Below, in pieces: positions 52,330 to 62,107 of a stretch of 64,000 nucleotides of DNA. The DNA comes from Escherichia phage vB_EcoP_SU10. The stretch lies in sequence record NC_027395.1; one strand, written 5' to 3'. The notes beneath the pieces were generated by a model. It had not been told where the DNA came from and searched no databases. It was given only the letters and a program-made list of their open reading frames with translations. Every line of letters starts with the position of its first letter. Position 1 is the first letter of the stretch. The position numbers were made by a program, and so were the translations under genes.

Positions 52330-52533
52330 TTAGTAGAACGAACGAATTTCATCCCACACTTGTTCCTGTTCTTTCCTATAAAAAGAAAGTTGGGTCTTGA
52401 ACATCTCCACTGATGATTCAAAGTTTTTGGTTTGTGCAGCTTCAACGAAACGTTCATGTCGGTTGATTTTGCACCGTAGCATTAAATACTTGGCTTCAAG
52501 TCTCCGAAGAGCCTGCCTTTTCTCAAGATTCAC
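52330..52533 (-). CDS. hypothetical coiled-coil protein (67 aa)
   Basis: ORF track. Preferred over the overlapping 52269-52457 frame. Confidence 0.45.
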   Translation of the reverse strand: MNLEKRQALRRLEAKYLMLRCKINRHERFVEAAQTKNFESSVEMFKTQLSFYRKEQEQVWDEIRSFY

Positions 52534-52942
52534 TTTTCAGATACTCTGACCAGTCGCCAGATTCAACCAGAACATCTTGTTCTTCGTCGATGTGATAAAT
52601 CCAAGCGATCACAGTTTCACCGGAGTCCATCTTAACAGCGATCTGAGTACGCTGATAGAAGCTGTCTTCAGGGCTACGTTTGTTGTAACCTTCCAGACGG
52701 TCATACGGACCTTCCAGACCTGCTTTGTCAGTAGCAAACACTTCTACACGAACAGGCTTATTGTTATTACTGTGTGCGAGAGAGATGCTCGGGAAGTAGG
52801 AACCACCGTAACGGAACAGATCGAAGTTATCTTCAGTCCAACCTTCGCCAATAGACTTAGCACCAGCTCGATCATTAACTAAATAGTTAGCTTGACCACG
52901 ACGAAGAGAACCATAAGTTGCTACGTAAATTACTTCTGACAT
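52523..52942 (-). CDS. gamma-glutamylcyclotransferase-like (AIG2/GGACT family) protein (139 aa)
   Basis: YVATYGSLRRGQANY...YDRLEGY...ESGDW follows the AIG2-like/YtfP pattern. Confidence 0.7.
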   Translation of the reverse strand: MSEVIYVATYGSLRRGQANYLVNDRAGAKSIGEGWTEDNFDLFRYGGSYFPSISLAHSNNNKPVRVEVFATDKAGLEGPYDRLEGYNKRSPEDSFYQRTQIAVKMDSGETVIAWIYHIDEEQDVLVESGDWSEYLKSES

Positions 52943-52943
52943 T

Positions 52944-53153
52944 TTAAATACCTTTCCAGTCTTTCATGATGTTTTCAATGTAAGCACACTGCTGATCAGT
53001 GGCTCCTGTTACAAACACTTCTAACCCCAACTGCTCACAGAAGGGATTAAGAATCAATATTCTGGTTTGCCCATACGAGTGATGCTCTCGGTAGATAACA
53101 CACCCAGCATCCCATACAGAGTCAATGGCTTTACTCAATCTTTCATGTTTCAT
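52944..53153 (-). CDS. hypothetical protein (69 aa)
   Basis: ORF track. Confidence 0.5.
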   Translation of the reverse strand: MKHERLSKAIDSVWDAGCVIYREHHSYGQTRILILNPFCEQLGLEVFVTGATDQQCAYIENIMKDWKGI

Positions 53154-53206
53154 AAAACCTCCAGCTTATCCGAACTAGCCTCCTCTTTCGAAGAGGCTAA
53201 AGCAGA

Positions 53207-53392
53207 TTACTCTGTAATAAAGATTTTGATTACACCGCAGATTGCTGCACTCTCAAATACTGCAACAGCTTCACTTCCCTGAAAGAAGGCCACTTTGCCG
53301 TCAGAGAAGTTAAACATGTCAGCATCTAGGTCCATAGCTCGCATATCACCAGCGTCGTTAGTATCTTTAAACAGAACTTTATACTTATTCAC
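53207..53392 (-). CDS. hypothetical protein (61 aa)
   Basis: ORF track. Confidence 0.45.
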   Translation of the reverse strand: MNKYKVLFKDTNDAGDMRAMDLDADMFNFSDGKVAFFQGSEAVAVFESAAICGVIKIFITE

Positions 53393-59117: not shown

Positions 59118-59126
59118 GATAACCTC

Positions 59127-59933
59127 TTATGCTACCTGAAGGAGTTTGATCTGCTGGTCAGCTTCTTTAACGTTGTTCCCGTTAATGATTTCATGAAGCT
59201 TCTCAATCGGAAGGCGAGAGTGCAATGCCATCAGAGTGGACATATCACACTGCTGAACAACCTTGTCAACCTGATCGTAAACAAACTTACGGTTTTCACG
59301 ATCACTAATCCAGAAGTTAGACAGAGAACGGTATTCAATACCATAGTCTTTATAACGGATTGCAGATGCTTTACCGTAGAGTTCTTTACGGCGAGTATCT
59401 TTGTCCATAATCACTGCTGGGAGAGACAGGAAGTAGTCACACAGCACACCCAGCATCATCTGAGTTTGCAGAGTGATATCCAAAGCACCAACTACGCCAA
59501 GATGTACGTGACCACCGGCAGTACGAAGTCCCTTATTCTGAGAAGTCGGGGATGGGTTTTTCTGACCAGTGAAGGCGTTGAAATCAGGAGTGCACCCGAA
59601 GATGAACGCTGATTCATTAAAGGTCTTCATCTCTTCTTCAGTGAAGATGTGAGAGCTAACACCCGGAGCTGTTTCCATGTCCAGTTTGTTCAGGACATTA
59701 TTGGTGAGATCGATACCACGTTGCATGTTATCGTTAAACGCTTCAAAACCGCTCTGTGGGTCAATATCAAACTCAGCCAGTACGTTGTCCTCTTGGAGAC
59801 GAACATCCTTAGCCAGAGCGATCTTATCGTCCTTAGAGCAGCCTAATAAACCGGCTACAGAAGTGATGATACCATTTCTAGTACGAACAAACATTTCAGG
59901 GTCAGAGCCGATAAGGAATTTGCGCTTAGTCAT
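59127..59933 (-). CDS. COOH-NH2 ligase type 2 (GCS-like superfamily), 268 aa
   Basis: FLIGSDPEMFV...EFDI...GGHVHLG...GIEYRSLSNFW resembles the phage COOH-NH2 ligase family as I recall it. Confidence 0.55.
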   Translation of the reverse strand: MTKRKFLIGSDPEMFVRTRNGIITSVAGLLGCSKDDKIALAKDVRLQEDNVLAEFDIDPQSGFEAFNDNMQRGIDLTNNVLNKLDMETAPGVSSHIFTEEEMKTFNESAFIFGCTPDFNAFTGQKNPSPTSQNKGLRTAGGHVHLGVVGALDITLQTQMMLGVLCDYFLSLPAVIMDKDTRRKELYGKASAIRYKDYGIEYRSLSNFWISDRENRKFVYDQVDKVVQQCDMSTLMALHSRLPIEKLHEIINGNNVKEADQQIKLLQVA

Positions 59934-60897
59934 TGTAATACTCCACTAGTTCAGAAAAGAGAGATGAGATTGTGTTACCAACTTCTTCAAGAGTAAGACC
60001 GGAATCTGCTCCAGTTCTTTGAATCAGTCGGGCTGTAAAGTTTTGTACTGTAATGTTTCCCAACTTGTCGTCTATTGCTTCACGTTTGTGACCATAACAG
60101 TTGGACCAGAGTCTTAACCACTCTGACATTGTTTCATACTCGTCCGGGTCTTGATCTTTAGCACGAGCAAATCTTCGTAAGGCACCTTGGTTATGGTTAC
60201 GAACATAACCATTCTCGTTGTCGCCAACACCGAAGGGGTTTTGAACCCATACTTGCTTCGTGTATTCATCAGAGTCTACAACCAAAGGAAGGAATGCTGC
60301 TGCTGACATATTGTTGTTAATAACAATAGAGGTGCTCTCACTACTCCCATTGGCTCTTCCTCGTTGAGACCATCCACCGAAGAAGTCACGACCCAACCCA
60401 GCTAACACTAGAGCGATTCCGATGCGTTTACGCTTCAGCCACTCTTCCCTGTCTTCAATTCCTTCTGCTAGGAAATCCATTCCACGATATTGCCCTTCCA
60501 GAATACTACGAAAGAGCATAAGTCCTGTGAAGATCTGATCTGCTGGATGCTCACGAAGGTTGACAGCAACACTATTCGCTGAAGTGATCGTAAATACGTC
60601 ACGATAGCAAGACATGGAGTTCATAATGTCTGCTGTTTCAACCAAGTTCTTTTCAATATCAGATGCAACATGACCATGAAAAGAGTGAGTCCAGTAATTC
60701 AACATCTCCAGTTGCAAGTTGATATCACGGTTGAAGCGACGATAGCGCCCCTCTTCCGTGATAACTTCACCATTAATGTCATTTACACACTGGCCTTGCA
60801 TGTAGTTGTGGATACCGAAGCACCCACGACCTAAGAACTTCTGTTCCCCTAAATCCTGTTGAAGATTAAGAGGTACGATCGTTGTGGAGATTGACAT
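59926..60897 (-). CDS. hypothetical protein in the ligase operon (323 aa)
   Basis: ORF track, 8-nt overlap with the downstream gene. Confidence 0.55.
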   Translation of the reverse strand: MSISTTIVPLNLQQDLGEQKFLGRGCFGIHNYMQGQCVNDINGEVITEEGRYRRFNRDINLQLEMLNYWTHSFHGHVASDIEKNLVETADIMNSMSCYRDVFTITSANSVAVNLREHPADQIFTGLMLFRSILEGQYRGMDFLAEGIEDREEWLKRKRIGIALVLAGLGRDFFGGWSQRGRANGSSESTSIVINNNMSAAAFLPLVVDSDEYTKQVWVQNPFGVGDNENGYVRNHNQGALRRFARAKDQDPDEYETMSEWLRLWSNCYGHKREAIDDKLGNITVQNFTARLIQRTGADSGLTLEEVGNTISSLFSELVEYYND

Positions 60898-60907
60898 AAC
60901 TAACCTT

Positions 60908-62107
60908 TTATTTTCCTAAAAACAATCCGCTCATAATACCATCCCACTCAGAGGATGGAATCACTGAATACTCCGAACTTTGGTCCAGAGTCCCACTACT
61001 GAATCGCTGAACAATATTATAAATATTGAAAAAATCCTTAGTCTCAGCGCGATAAGCGTAGACTAATTTGTCAGCCGTTCTTTCATCTTTAGAAACTCGA
61101 CGAGCAAAGGTAACCAGAAGATTGTCACCTTTGAGCATTTCTGACCCATCTTTTACTAAATCAGGGTGCATCACTGGCAAGAACATTGAGTTGTTCACTC
61201 GTAATTCTGCTGTTTCATCATTCTCATAATGAATCCACTTAAAATCTTCATCACGAAAGTGACCGCACCCATCTCTGTATGACTGTTGACGCCAAGGCAC
61301 TTGAAATGCTTCAGCGTATTTATCAGCCATGCCGACTGTAAATAGCGACGCTGGAAAGATACAAGCATCCCAATCATTACCAACCAGAGTTGCTTTCGTT
61401 TCGCCCAAGAGGTTAGTGTAAGTGCTAACCATTCGTGAGTAAACATAAGCCTGAAGGATTGTCCAGCCTTCAACCAACCATTTATGGAGGAAGGTTTCAA
61501 CTTGACTCTCTTCATCTTCATAATAGAAGGTTCGGTCTAACATCAAATAGAACAGACAACGATCAGCAGGGATATTCTCAGTTGCTACCCCCATAAAACC
61601 TTTATCGTGCCAGCGTAAACAGGAGGGACGATCTTTGTCCACAAATGCTTCCATAGCTTCCAGTACAGCACGAGGTGTGGTTCGATGTTCAGGGTTTTTG
61701 TCGTTCCAACGTTCGATGTTATTCTTGGGAGGTGTGTCTTCATCTTCATACGAACACCAACTTAAAGCTTCAGCTACATGCTTTTCATCACGCCAACGTC
61801 TAAAACCTAACATCTTCATATGAGTTCCGGAGTTCCAGATATGCTTGATTTTACACATATCCATCTCTCGGCTTAACAAGAATTCTTCCCCGTCAGCACT
61901 ACGAACGTTGGCTTCTTCATGCCACACTCGAACGTGCATATTCCATCCATGAGTTGCCTCATACATGTTAGGGTCGAAGTAGTCATCATCTTCATCGTCG
62001 TTTTCATCAACGCCGCCATTATAGTTGCGAAGTTGAAGGAACCCATAACAAGGGGGGTTGACCGTTAAAACATTACCTTCAGTATCTTCTAATGTTACTG
62101 GAAACAT
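60908..62107 (-). CDS. hypothetical protein in the ligase operon (399 aa)
   Basis: ORF track, GAGG SD. Confidence 0.55.
   Translation of the reverse strand: MFPVTLEDTEGNVLTVNPPCYGFLQLRNYNGGVDENDDEDDDYFDPNMYEATHGWNMHVRVWHEEANVRSADGEEFLLSREMDMCKIKHIWNSGTHMKMLGFRRWRDEKHVAEALSWCSYEDEDTPPKNNIERWNDKNPEHRTTPRAVLEAMEAFVDKDRPSCLRWHDKGFMGVATENIPADRCLFYLMLDRTFYYEDEESQVETFLHKWLVEGWTILQAYVYSRMVSTYTNLLGETKATLVGNDWDACIFPASLFTVGMADKYAEAFQVPWRQQSYRDGCGHFRDEDFKWIHYENDETAELRVNNSMFLPVMHPDLVKDGSEMLKGDNLLVTFARRVSKDERTADKLVYAYRAETKDFFNIYNIVQRFSSGTLDQSSEYSVIPSSEWDGIMSGLFLGK

Follow-up and report, generated by a model that had tools for sequence, protein, structure and literature searches.

What does a virulent podovirus build with three ligases, a glutaminase, and a cyclotransferase? 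The question is raised by positions 52523 to 62107 (hereafter, the block) of the 64,000-nucleotide (nt) record NC_027395.1, Escherichia phage vB_EcoP_SU10, the whole of which we call the window. Our favored answer, to which we give a probability of roughly 45%, is that the block would specify one co-functional pathway that builds and trims an amide-linked adduct of the gamma-glutamyl type within the infected cell's cytoplasm, the acceptor being more likely peptide- or protein-associated than DNA.

The set comprises three ATP-dependent carboxylate-amine ligases of different folds (GCS2-like, glutamine-synthetase-like, and ATP-grasp), a class-II glutaminase whose N-terminal-nucleophile (Ntn) cysteine site is intact by its sequence motifs, and a GGACT-like cyclotransferase. 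Cassette-specific partner proteins (gp88, gp87, gp85, and DUF7195) accompany these enzymes, and the same five enzymes are found together in very distant phages.

Is This a New Locus?

The block matches 97 phage records. Its nucleotide identity to Bas91 (Escherichia phage LorandFenyves) is 98.3%, and to phiEco32 97.1% over 98% of its length; gene by gene, and in the same order, it corresponds to phiEco32 gp77-gp88 and to Bas91_0071-0083. From this near-identity and gene correspondence we therefore assign the window to Kuravirus (Gordonclarkvirinae, phiEco32-like), as the genome of an E. coli podophage. Nothing material differs from the phiEco32 cassette, save that the window has an extra open reading frame (ORF) of 69 amino acids (aa).

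This phiEco32-type amidoligase cassette is already known, and its biochemical product has been left unsolved in the literature. As cited by later papers, Iyer et al. (2009) predicted that it modifies the cell wall or peptidoglycan and thereby prevents superinfection, and Hardies et al. (2013) described it in further podoviruses. Later papers list it, as a "peptidoglycan modification cassette," in RIO-1, phiEco32, 7-11, PA11, tf, MR299-2, LUZ24, PaP3, and CW02. It is important to remember that the label is a prediction, not an experimental result. The literature on the cassette's Pfam accessions, on Kuravirus and phiEco32 since 2022, and on amidoligases with hypermodification yielded no experiment on product, substrate, or phenotype; a 2023 paper states that the functions "remain to be explored," and papers from 2023 to 2025 either repeat the 2009 prediction or call the matter unexplored.

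A preliminary description of this stretch, made from its letters alone, had said that no product was experimentally identified, and had mentioned earlier comparative genomics and a Pfam family named for phiEco32; both statements are correct, the family being PF14395, named after a phiEco32 protein. It had omitted the cell-wall, superinfection-blocking hypothesis that later papers credit to Iyer et al. (2009), and the block that it presented as an open finding is 97-98% identical to phiEco32 and Bas91 and has had a published hypothesis since 2009, to which that description adds nothing. What we add is a confident structure model of the gp88-like protein that has no match among solved structures, and the observation that the amidotransferase zinc ribbon is kept in most lineages examined.

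Which Genes, and on Which Strand?

Both GC skew and all real ORFs place transcription of this arm on the minus strand, so that the block runs from 62107 to 52523 and the primase-helicase gene (50513-52303) is the gene directly downstream of it. The block had been described as lying downstream of primase-helicase; since the genes are on the minus strand, it lies upstream and is transcribed before that gene. The ORFs themselves all exist where they had been placed, and "largely translationally coupled" is a fair description because the spacing ranges from 20-nt overlaps to 10-nt gaps, with two exceptions of 79 and 53 nt. The features, in order of transcription, are:

60908..62107, minus strand: gp88-like protein, 399 aa; cassette-specific; opens the block
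59926..60897, minus strand: gp87-like protein, 323 aa
59127..59933, minus strand: COOH-NH2 ligase type 2 (GCS2-like carboxylate-amine ligase), 268 aa; PF14395, PHROG 3815
58500..59117, minus strand: gp85-like protein, 205 aa; between the two ligase genes
57400..58503, minus strand: Amidoligase_2 (glutamine-synthetase-like), 367 aa; PF12224, PHROG 7469
55290..57320, minus strand: class-II (Ntn) glutamine amidotransferase, 676 aa; GATase_6, three C-terminal zinc ribbons
55054..55287, minus strand: DUF7195 protein, 77 aa; PF23825
54849..55073, minus strand: 74-aa protein; possible diverged DUF7195 paralogue
53644..54846, minus strand: ATP-grasp ligase, 400 aa; PHROG 2599; acidic linker and extra C-terminal domain
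53389..53637, minus strand: gp79, RNA-polymerase-binding regulator; 100% identical to phiEco32 gp79
53207..53392, minus strand: gp78-like ORF, 61 aa; annotated in phiEco32 and Bas91
52944..53153, minus strand: 69-aa ORF; equals Bas91_0072, not in the phiEco32 annotation
52523..52942, minus strand: AIG2/GGACT-type cyclotransferase-like protein, 139 aa; PF06094
52330..52533, minus strand: gp76-like ORF, 67 aa; between the cyclotransferase and primase-helicase genes
50513..52303, minus strand: DNA primase-helicase, by the phiEco32/Bas91 annotation; context only

The 69-aa ORF is an indel relative to phiEco32 and may be why alignments to phiEco32-type records fall into two pieces. LUZ24-like phages also have a small ORF at the gp76-like position, by position only.

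Do the Enzyme Assignments Hold?

Judged by their sequences, all five enzyme family assignments hold: Pfam and PHROG support the folds first proposed, the ATP-grasp protein through PHROG 2599, its motif, and structures. The motifs from which the first two ligases had been recognized (GSDPEMF, GGHVHLG, EYRSLSNFW; GIELELEG, STHVHMD, IEFRISE) are all present in the translations. The COOH-NH2 ligase matches PF14395 (E 2.4e-8, 34 bits against a cut-off of 25) and PHROG 3815 (3.7e-118), and its residues D11, E13, H142, H144, E200, and R202 are invariant in four phage lineages. Similarly, the amidoligase matches Amidoligase_2 (PF12224, 4.7e-8, 33.6 bits against 22) and PHROG 7469 (1.2e-158).

The third ligase requires more careful inspection. 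Its Pfam matches are weak (RimK 0.01, Dala_Dala_lig_C 0.006), and it is assigned to the ATP-grasp enzymes because of PHROG 2599 (7e-190), the Mg-binding motif LEVNTAPG, and weak matches to solved RimK-like structures. Both the acidic linker (approximately aa 275-325) and the extra C-terminal domain that had been noticed are there, and PHROG 20552 matches aa 319-400. All Pfam, NCBIfam, and PDB matches to RimK or Ddl are weak and far under the family cut-offs. RimK, the S6 glutamate ligase, was rejected: rimK_fam scores 31.5 bits against 143 and PRK10446 25 against 331, with aa 214-253 alone matching. The protein is thus classed as an ATP-grasp enzyme, not as a demonstrable RimK.

The cyclotransferase-like protein matches GGACT (PF06094) at 3.4e-17 and 63.6 bits, against a cut-off of 22.8, over model positions 2-119 of 120, and its translation holds the YGSL substrate-loop motif and the glutamate of DRLEGY. 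By these features it belongs to the GGACT/AIG2 gamma-glutamyl(amine) cyclotransferases, as a putative enzyme.

The amidotransferase matches GATase_6 (Pfam, 1.1e-14). The protein opens with M-C-G-I-V and contains the motifs GHSRHATKG, NAHPF, HNGTL, and DSENI; a cysteine after the initiator together with the arginine, asparagine-glycine, and aspartate motifs of the glutamine site marks it, on sequence, as a class-II (Ntn) enzyme. The three CxxC...CxxC modules said to be fused to it are indeed there, behind a family-specific middle domain. The ORF coordinates first given stand, with the proviso that the end at 57320 is reached only by accepting a rare ATT start: the frame has no ATG, GTG, or TTG 5' of the catalytic cysteine, and reads TAG AAA ATT TGT on the minus strand (57318-57340), with an AGGTGG Shine-Dalgarno sequence 8 nt 5' of the ATT. 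The start-site sequence is identical in phiEco32, and the gene annotated in the records of phiEco32 and Bas91 is this same one of 2031 nt. Homologues in LUZ24, RIO-1, LAh_6, and metagenome contigs start with ATG-TGT, and a Met-Cys start was seen in 8 of the 10 cassette amidotransferase ORFs inspected. As a side observation, the weak ATT codon may limit amidotransferase synthesis relative to that of the ligases.

A C-terminal zinc ribbon is likewise present in 8 of those 10 ORFs (Kuravirus, LAh_6, LUZ24, RIO-1, and four metagenome contigs). The region from approximately aa 215 onward (the C-terminal 462 aa) was seen solely behind the amidotransferase domain, in 32 representatives among 1.84 billion searched exhaustively with HMMER; no stand-alone or otherwise fused copy was found in that set, and domain fusion therefore gives no clue to function. 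NCBIfam scores lie far under the GlmS, PurF, and AsnB cut-offs, with EgtC among the weak matches. GlmS was rejected (glmS 35.7 bits against 418; PRK00331 42 against 381; only aa 1-196 match), and no SIS isomerase domain was found by Pfam.

Here, a caution about product names is in order. "L-glutamine-D-fructose-6-phosphate aminotransferase" and "ribosomal protein S6 glutaminyl transferase" have spread through the GenBank records of many relatives. Judged by their profile scores, many of these names are over-annotations, approximately 5- to 12-fold under the NCBIfam cut-offs, with the generic catalytic cores alone matching.

What Are the Partner Proteins?

The 399-, 323-, 205-, and 74-aa proteins have no Pfam or NCBIfam match, and a PDB sequence search with the gp88-, gp87-, and gp85-like proteins was empty. 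The gp87-like model is weaker than the confident gp88-like one (predicted local distance difference test score 69) and had no significant structural match. A word-indexed protein search gave 17 relatives for gp87 and 21 for gp88, none with precomputed Pfam domains. Foldseek hinted at a fold shared with both of the positional counterparts in Aeromonas phages; despite this hint, hhalign of the gp88 and gp87 profiles gave no sign of kinship.

The gp85-like gene starts 9 nt past the end of the COOH-NH2 ligase gene and overlaps the start of the amidoligase gene by 4 nt. Homologues hold the same position between the ligases in LAh_6 (gp110), LUZ24 (gp17), and Rembedalsseter; two aspartates excepted, the invariant residues are not typical catalytic ones.

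The DUF7195 protein (PF23825, 4.7e-17) occurs in 134 phage records and is 100% identical across most Kuravirus genomes. In the window, a single gene separates its coding sequence from that of the downstream ATP-grasp enzyme; in LAh_6 and LUZ24, a homologue or positional counterpart immediately precedes the ATP-grasp gene. The intervening 74-aa gene overlaps the preceding gene by 20 nt, and its product shares the end motif DYFE(I) with LUZ24 gp20 in alignment, which lends weak support to its being a possible diverged DUF7195 paralogue.

Could the small proteins be carriers, as had been proposed? We aligned four proteins of the DUF7195 position (window DUF7195, LAh_6 gp107, LUZ24 gp20, and the window 74-aa protein) and found two prolines alone to be invariant; the C-termini differ, and neither a C-terminal Glu/Gln nor any acceptor residue is conserved, which argues against a covalent carrier of the LysW/LysX or Pup/PafA type. 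That candidate was rejected. Three small ORFs do precede the cyclotransferase gene, as described; one of them is not unassigned, as it encodes the characterized regulator gp79, which binds RNA polymerase, inhibits sigma70, and activates the phage sigma factor gp36 (PMC8948821, PMC12276001). Being a transcription regulator, gp79 is not a pathway component. The carrier proposal is thus weak on both counts.

Since gp79 is a middle gene of phiEco32, its position inside the block suggests that the block would be expressed with the middle genes. No copy of the phiEco32 middle/late (gp36-type) promoter consensus was found on the minus (coding) strand of the block.

Does the Cassette Travel as One Module?

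By tblastn, 300 phage records have an amidoligase homologue and 313 the amidotransferase domain. Among the hosts of the matching phages are Escherichia, Pseudomonas, Aeromonas, Vibrio, Proteus, Salmonella, Cronobacter, and Pseudoalteromonas, together with marine hosts. The five enzymes occur together in Kuravirus, LUZ24-like, RIO-1-like, and Aeromonas phages and in phage-like metagenome contigs; the set is complete in LUZ24, RIO-1, LAh_6, and Rembedalsseter, and several metagenome contigs are without one member. A match in a Porphyromonas phage proved to be a lone amidoligase and was rejected as a cassette.

LUZ24, UFV-P2, and Rembedalsseter share the gene order of the window: two unknowns, COOH-NH2 ligase, gp85-like protein, amidoligase, and amidotransferase, then a small protein, ATP-grasp enzyme, cyclotransferase, small protein, and primase-helicase. 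The genes are rearranged in RIO-1, Aeromonas LAh_6, and five phage-like metagenome contigs, yet the same enzymes stay together there. Because they co-occur despite rearranged gene order, there is strong evidence, from gene content, for one functional module traveling with the replication arm, and the earlier suggestion that these genes act together is borne out. The module lies in that arm in Kuravirus, LUZ24-like phages, RIO-1, and contigs L010 and L014. Primase-helicase follows directly in LUZ24, UFV-P2, and Rembedalsseter and after a few small ORFs in RIO-1 and L014; in two annotated contigs the neighbors are primase-helicase, family-A DNA polymerase, or helicase. In LAh_6 (L005, 14130-17268), the cassette is followed not by primase-helicase but by ribose-phosphate pyrophosphokinase and nicotinamide phosphoribosyltransferase genes (salvage of nicotinamide adenine dinucleotide).

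A pattern-limited scan of 185,579 species genomes turned up only nine loci with the COOH-NH2 ligase, seven of them on contigs of metagenome-assembled genomes. Other cassette genes lay beside it in seven of the seven loci long enough to show neighbors. Two annotated scan contigs look phage-like, and the scan gave no informative cellular context. One divergent cassette (contig L010, CAZNER010000045.1) has a Peptidase_C26/class-I amidotransferase-like gene (6396-7391) directly preceding the COOH-NH2 ligase gene; it also has two amidotransferase-like ORFs.

The lineages differ in detail. LUZ24-like phages (Bruynoghevirus/Vicosavirus), RIO-1-like phages (Zobellviridae), and the Aeromonas Lahexavirus share the five enzymes and the amidotransferase zinc ribbon with the window; the cassette also stands before primase-helicase in the first two groups, and LUZ24 and LAh_6 have the gp85-like and DUF7195-position partners. 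In contrast, LUZ24-like phages and RIO-1 have a shorter amidotransferase with a single zinc ribbon instead of three, and an ATP-grasp protein without the acidic linker and C-terminal domain. The gp88 and gp87 proteins have no detectable sequence homologues in LUZ24 or RIO-1, and RIO-1 has, besides its different gene order, an extended COOH-NH2 ligase.

What Might the Cassette Make?

The pathway that we favor would run as follows. The GCS2-like ligase would form a gamma-glutamyl-amine bond, to which the ATP-grasp enzyme could add a further amino acid, as RimK or Ddl do. The glutamine-synthetase-like amidoligase would then turn a carboxylate into an activated acyl phosphate, and this would be amidated with glutamine-derived ammonia from the amidotransferase, perhaps docking through its zinc ribbon. 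Finally, the GGACT-like enzyme would remove the gamma-glutamyl group as 5-oxoproline, either as a deprotection, as BtrG does in butirosin synthesis, or for recycling. The cassette is probably expressed with the middle (replication) genes.

There are precedents for putting on a gamma-glutamyl group and taking it off again. BtrJ/BtrG (butirosin), EgtA/EgtC (ergothioneine), and PuuA/PuuD (putrescine) likewise pair an installing ligase, of the carboxylate-amine or ATP-grasp type, with a cyclotransferase or amidotransferase-like amidohydrolase that removes the group; EgtA is a GCS-type ligase, and EgtC is a class-II amidotransferase-like amidohydrolase. RimK with ribosomal protein S6 and PafA with Pup are further ligase precedents. 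EgtC is among the weak matches of the amidotransferase, and the Peptidase_C26 (gamma-glutamyl-hydrolase-like) neighbor in contig L010 speaks for gamma-glutamyl chemistry. However, there is no orthology to these systems, with scores far under the cut-offs, and the cassette is without an acyl carrier protein, a pyridoxal-phosphate enzyme, a methyltransferase, or a sulfoxide synthase.

Why a peptide- or protein-associated acceptor rather than DNA? The zinc ribbon, the extra domain of the ATP-grasp enzyme, the non-enzymatic partners, and the lack of signs of DNA modification in relatives together tip the balance. The ribbon, the extra domain, and the four partner proteins point to a multi-protein assembly, or to an acceptor that is a macromolecule or peptide, rather than to a simple soluble metabolite.

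Several points weigh against the gamma-glutamyl pathway. Every chemical step in it is an inference from the enzyme families. The matches of the ATP-grasp protein and the amidotransferase lie far under every equivalog cut-off, so that substrate specificity cannot be read from homology, and the four DUF7195-position proteins share no acceptor residue or C-terminus. The gp88, gp87, and gp85 proteins could themselves be enzymes of unrecognized folds, which would change the chemistry entirely. Lastly, Gordonclarkvirinae resist restriction-modification systems with no known cause, although the window has EcoRI, EcoRV, EcoKI, and EcoP1 sites, and this keeps a DNA-linked role alive.

Could the Target Be the Cell Wall or a Protein?

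Two rivals survive best, and we hold each of them to be unlikely, to the same degree. On the cell-wall explanation, the ligases would introduce or alter unusual linkages in the stem peptide of a peptidoglycan precursor and the amidotransferase would amidate it, and the changed envelope would block superinfection or premature lysis. It has the prediction of Iyer et al. (2009) and the podovirus distribution of Hardies et al. (2013) behind it, both as relayed by later papers, which merely repeat the prediction; no experiment was found. The nearest weak matches of the ATP-grasp protein include D-Ala-D-Ala ligases, and peptidoglycan precursors are cytoplasmic and within reach of soluble enzymes. 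In MurT/GatD, a ligase plus a glutaminase amidates stem-peptide carboxylates, which is a precedent. However, the block has no Mur-ligase, transpeptidase, flippase, or other envelope family by Pfam, the scope of that check being Pfam only, with membrane and secretion signals not searched. Where checked, the module sits with replication genes, not lysis or envelope genes; zinc ribbons and several partners are not expected of an enzyme acting on UDP-MurNAc-peptide; and a virulent phage with a short infection cycle would presumably have little time for wall turnover.

The other is protein tagging, in which glutamate or peptide tails or a gamma-glutamyl isopeptide would be placed on a host or phage protein, such as a replication or translation factor, with the cyclotransferase and amidotransferase editing the tag or taking it off. 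RimK-like and PafA/GCS-like ligases act on proteins, and the GGACT substrate is epsilon-(gamma-glutamyl)-lysine. The zinc ribbon, the C-terminal domain of the ATP-grasp enzyme, and the conserved small partner protein would suit such a role, and phage ATP-grasp enzymes have been discussed in the literature as protein modifiers. On the other side, no target has been identified, the DUF7195-position alignment offers no conserved acceptor, similarity to PafA is not significant, and three ligases with a glutaminase exceed the needs of known tagging systems.

Is DNA the Target?

Less probable again is hypermodification of DNA or nucleotides, in which a base would be decorated with an amino-acid-derived group. 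Its attraction is that it would account for an observation of the BASEL authors, who report that Gordonclarkvirinae withstand restriction-modification systems to a remarkable degree and yet have no known modification pathway. Sites in the window are at expected levels (EcoRI 13, EcoRV 36, EcoKI 11, EcoP1 101), so the in vivo resistance is not due to missing sites and avoidance cannot explain it. In addition, the cassette shares its arm with genes of replication and nucleotide metabolism, zinc ribbons are able to bind nucleic acids, and some viral metagenome contigs carry amidoligase and amidotransferase genes along with genes for thymidine hypermodification.

Against this stands the DNA of relatives that have the cassette. 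That of U17, a LUZ24-like carrier, is cut by 11 of 16 restriction enzymes; native DNA of Rembedalsseter, which has the complete cassette, is readable by nanopore, and its comparison with amplified DNA gave a nick-associated signal only; and phiEco32 DNA served for restriction profiling and subcloning by which the genome ends were mapped. Together these weaken the DNA-base option raised in the preliminary description. No enrichment of WACTRTGAC, the nick motif of the LUZ24 type, was seen in the window.

Thymidine hypermodification clusters (Lee et al. 2018, 2021) likewise lie near replication genes, attach amino-acid-derived groups, and sometimes contain genes of the amidoligase and amidotransferase Pfam families. 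In contrast to them, cassette-bearing relatives have restrictable DNA, and no 5-hydroxymethyldeoxyuridine synthase, dUMP or other hydroxymethylase, TET/JBP protein, 5-HMUDK, aGPT-Pplase, or glycosylase is annotated in Bas91 or was found by Pfam in ten replication-arm ORFs scanned, a check that used general families and not dedicated hidden Markov models. The ten ORFs have ThyX, dCTP deaminase, Macro, SLOG, exonuclease, or Dps-like domains or no match, the ThyX and dCTP deaminase being ordinary; a cluster of this kind was accordingly rejected.

The site counts of the whole window also speak against modification. CCWGG occurs 5 times against approximately 74 expected and GATC 134 times against approximately 296, and there is no PstI, SacI, NcoI, BamHI, SmaI, or SphI site; that CCWGG, GATC, PstI, SacI, and NcoI sites are so strongly and selectively avoided suggests DNA that is exposed to at least some restriction enzymes or nucleases.

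A bolder form of the proposal, which we regard as a long shot, is that the cassette places an amidated gamma-glutamyl or peptidyl group on DNA, the nucleotide pool, or a replisome macromolecule, and so causes the restriction resistance of Gordonclarkvirinae. In Kuravirus, such a modification could escape sequencing and in vitro digestion if it were partial, labile, or removed by the cyclotransferase before packaging. If true, a replication-linked modification explaining this resistance would be important; we consider it unlikely.

Between the dCTP deaminase and exonuclease-subunit genes lies that of a 475-aa "nucleotidyltransferase" (48590-50017, minus strand), which the BASEL authors flagged as a possible DNA-modification gene; it has no Pfam match at E <= 0.001.

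The last rival, that there is no pathway and unrelated auxiliary metabolic genes lie side by side, can point to gp79 and the variable 69-aa ORF as unrelated genes within the block and to GenBank product names that vary from gene to gene, and is close to refuted by the co-occurrence of the five enzyme families in very distant phages despite shuffled order and by the cassette neighbors at all seven informative loci of the genome scan.

Why Does It Matter, and What Lies Nearby?

The module is among the more widespread conserved enzyme sets of virulent podoviruses, one for which no experimentally supported function was found, and it holds an amidotransferase architecture met nowhere else among the 1.84 billion representative proteins. 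Solving its function would reveal either new host-takeover chemistry or a new anti-defense mechanism. Because the cassette is present in tractable E. coli phages of BASEL with unexplained restriction resistance, the question is directly testable.

Upstream of the block by two small ORFs is the longest intergenic gap near it (226 nt, 62637-62862). On the minus strand it contains a terminator-like hairpin (62680-62663) and a sigma70-like promoter match (62825-62796), and it may mark the boundary of a transcription unit.

Elsewhere in the window, the minus-strand genes at 32955-33347 and 34011-34532, for a SLOG-family (YAcAr) and a Macro-domain protein, flank a 215-aa ORF (33344-33991) that lines up by position with the Bas91 sigma-factor gene. 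Bas91 annotates the pair as "GTP-binding domain" and "phosphatase"; their domains suggest handling of ADP-ribose or a nucleotide signal in host conflict.

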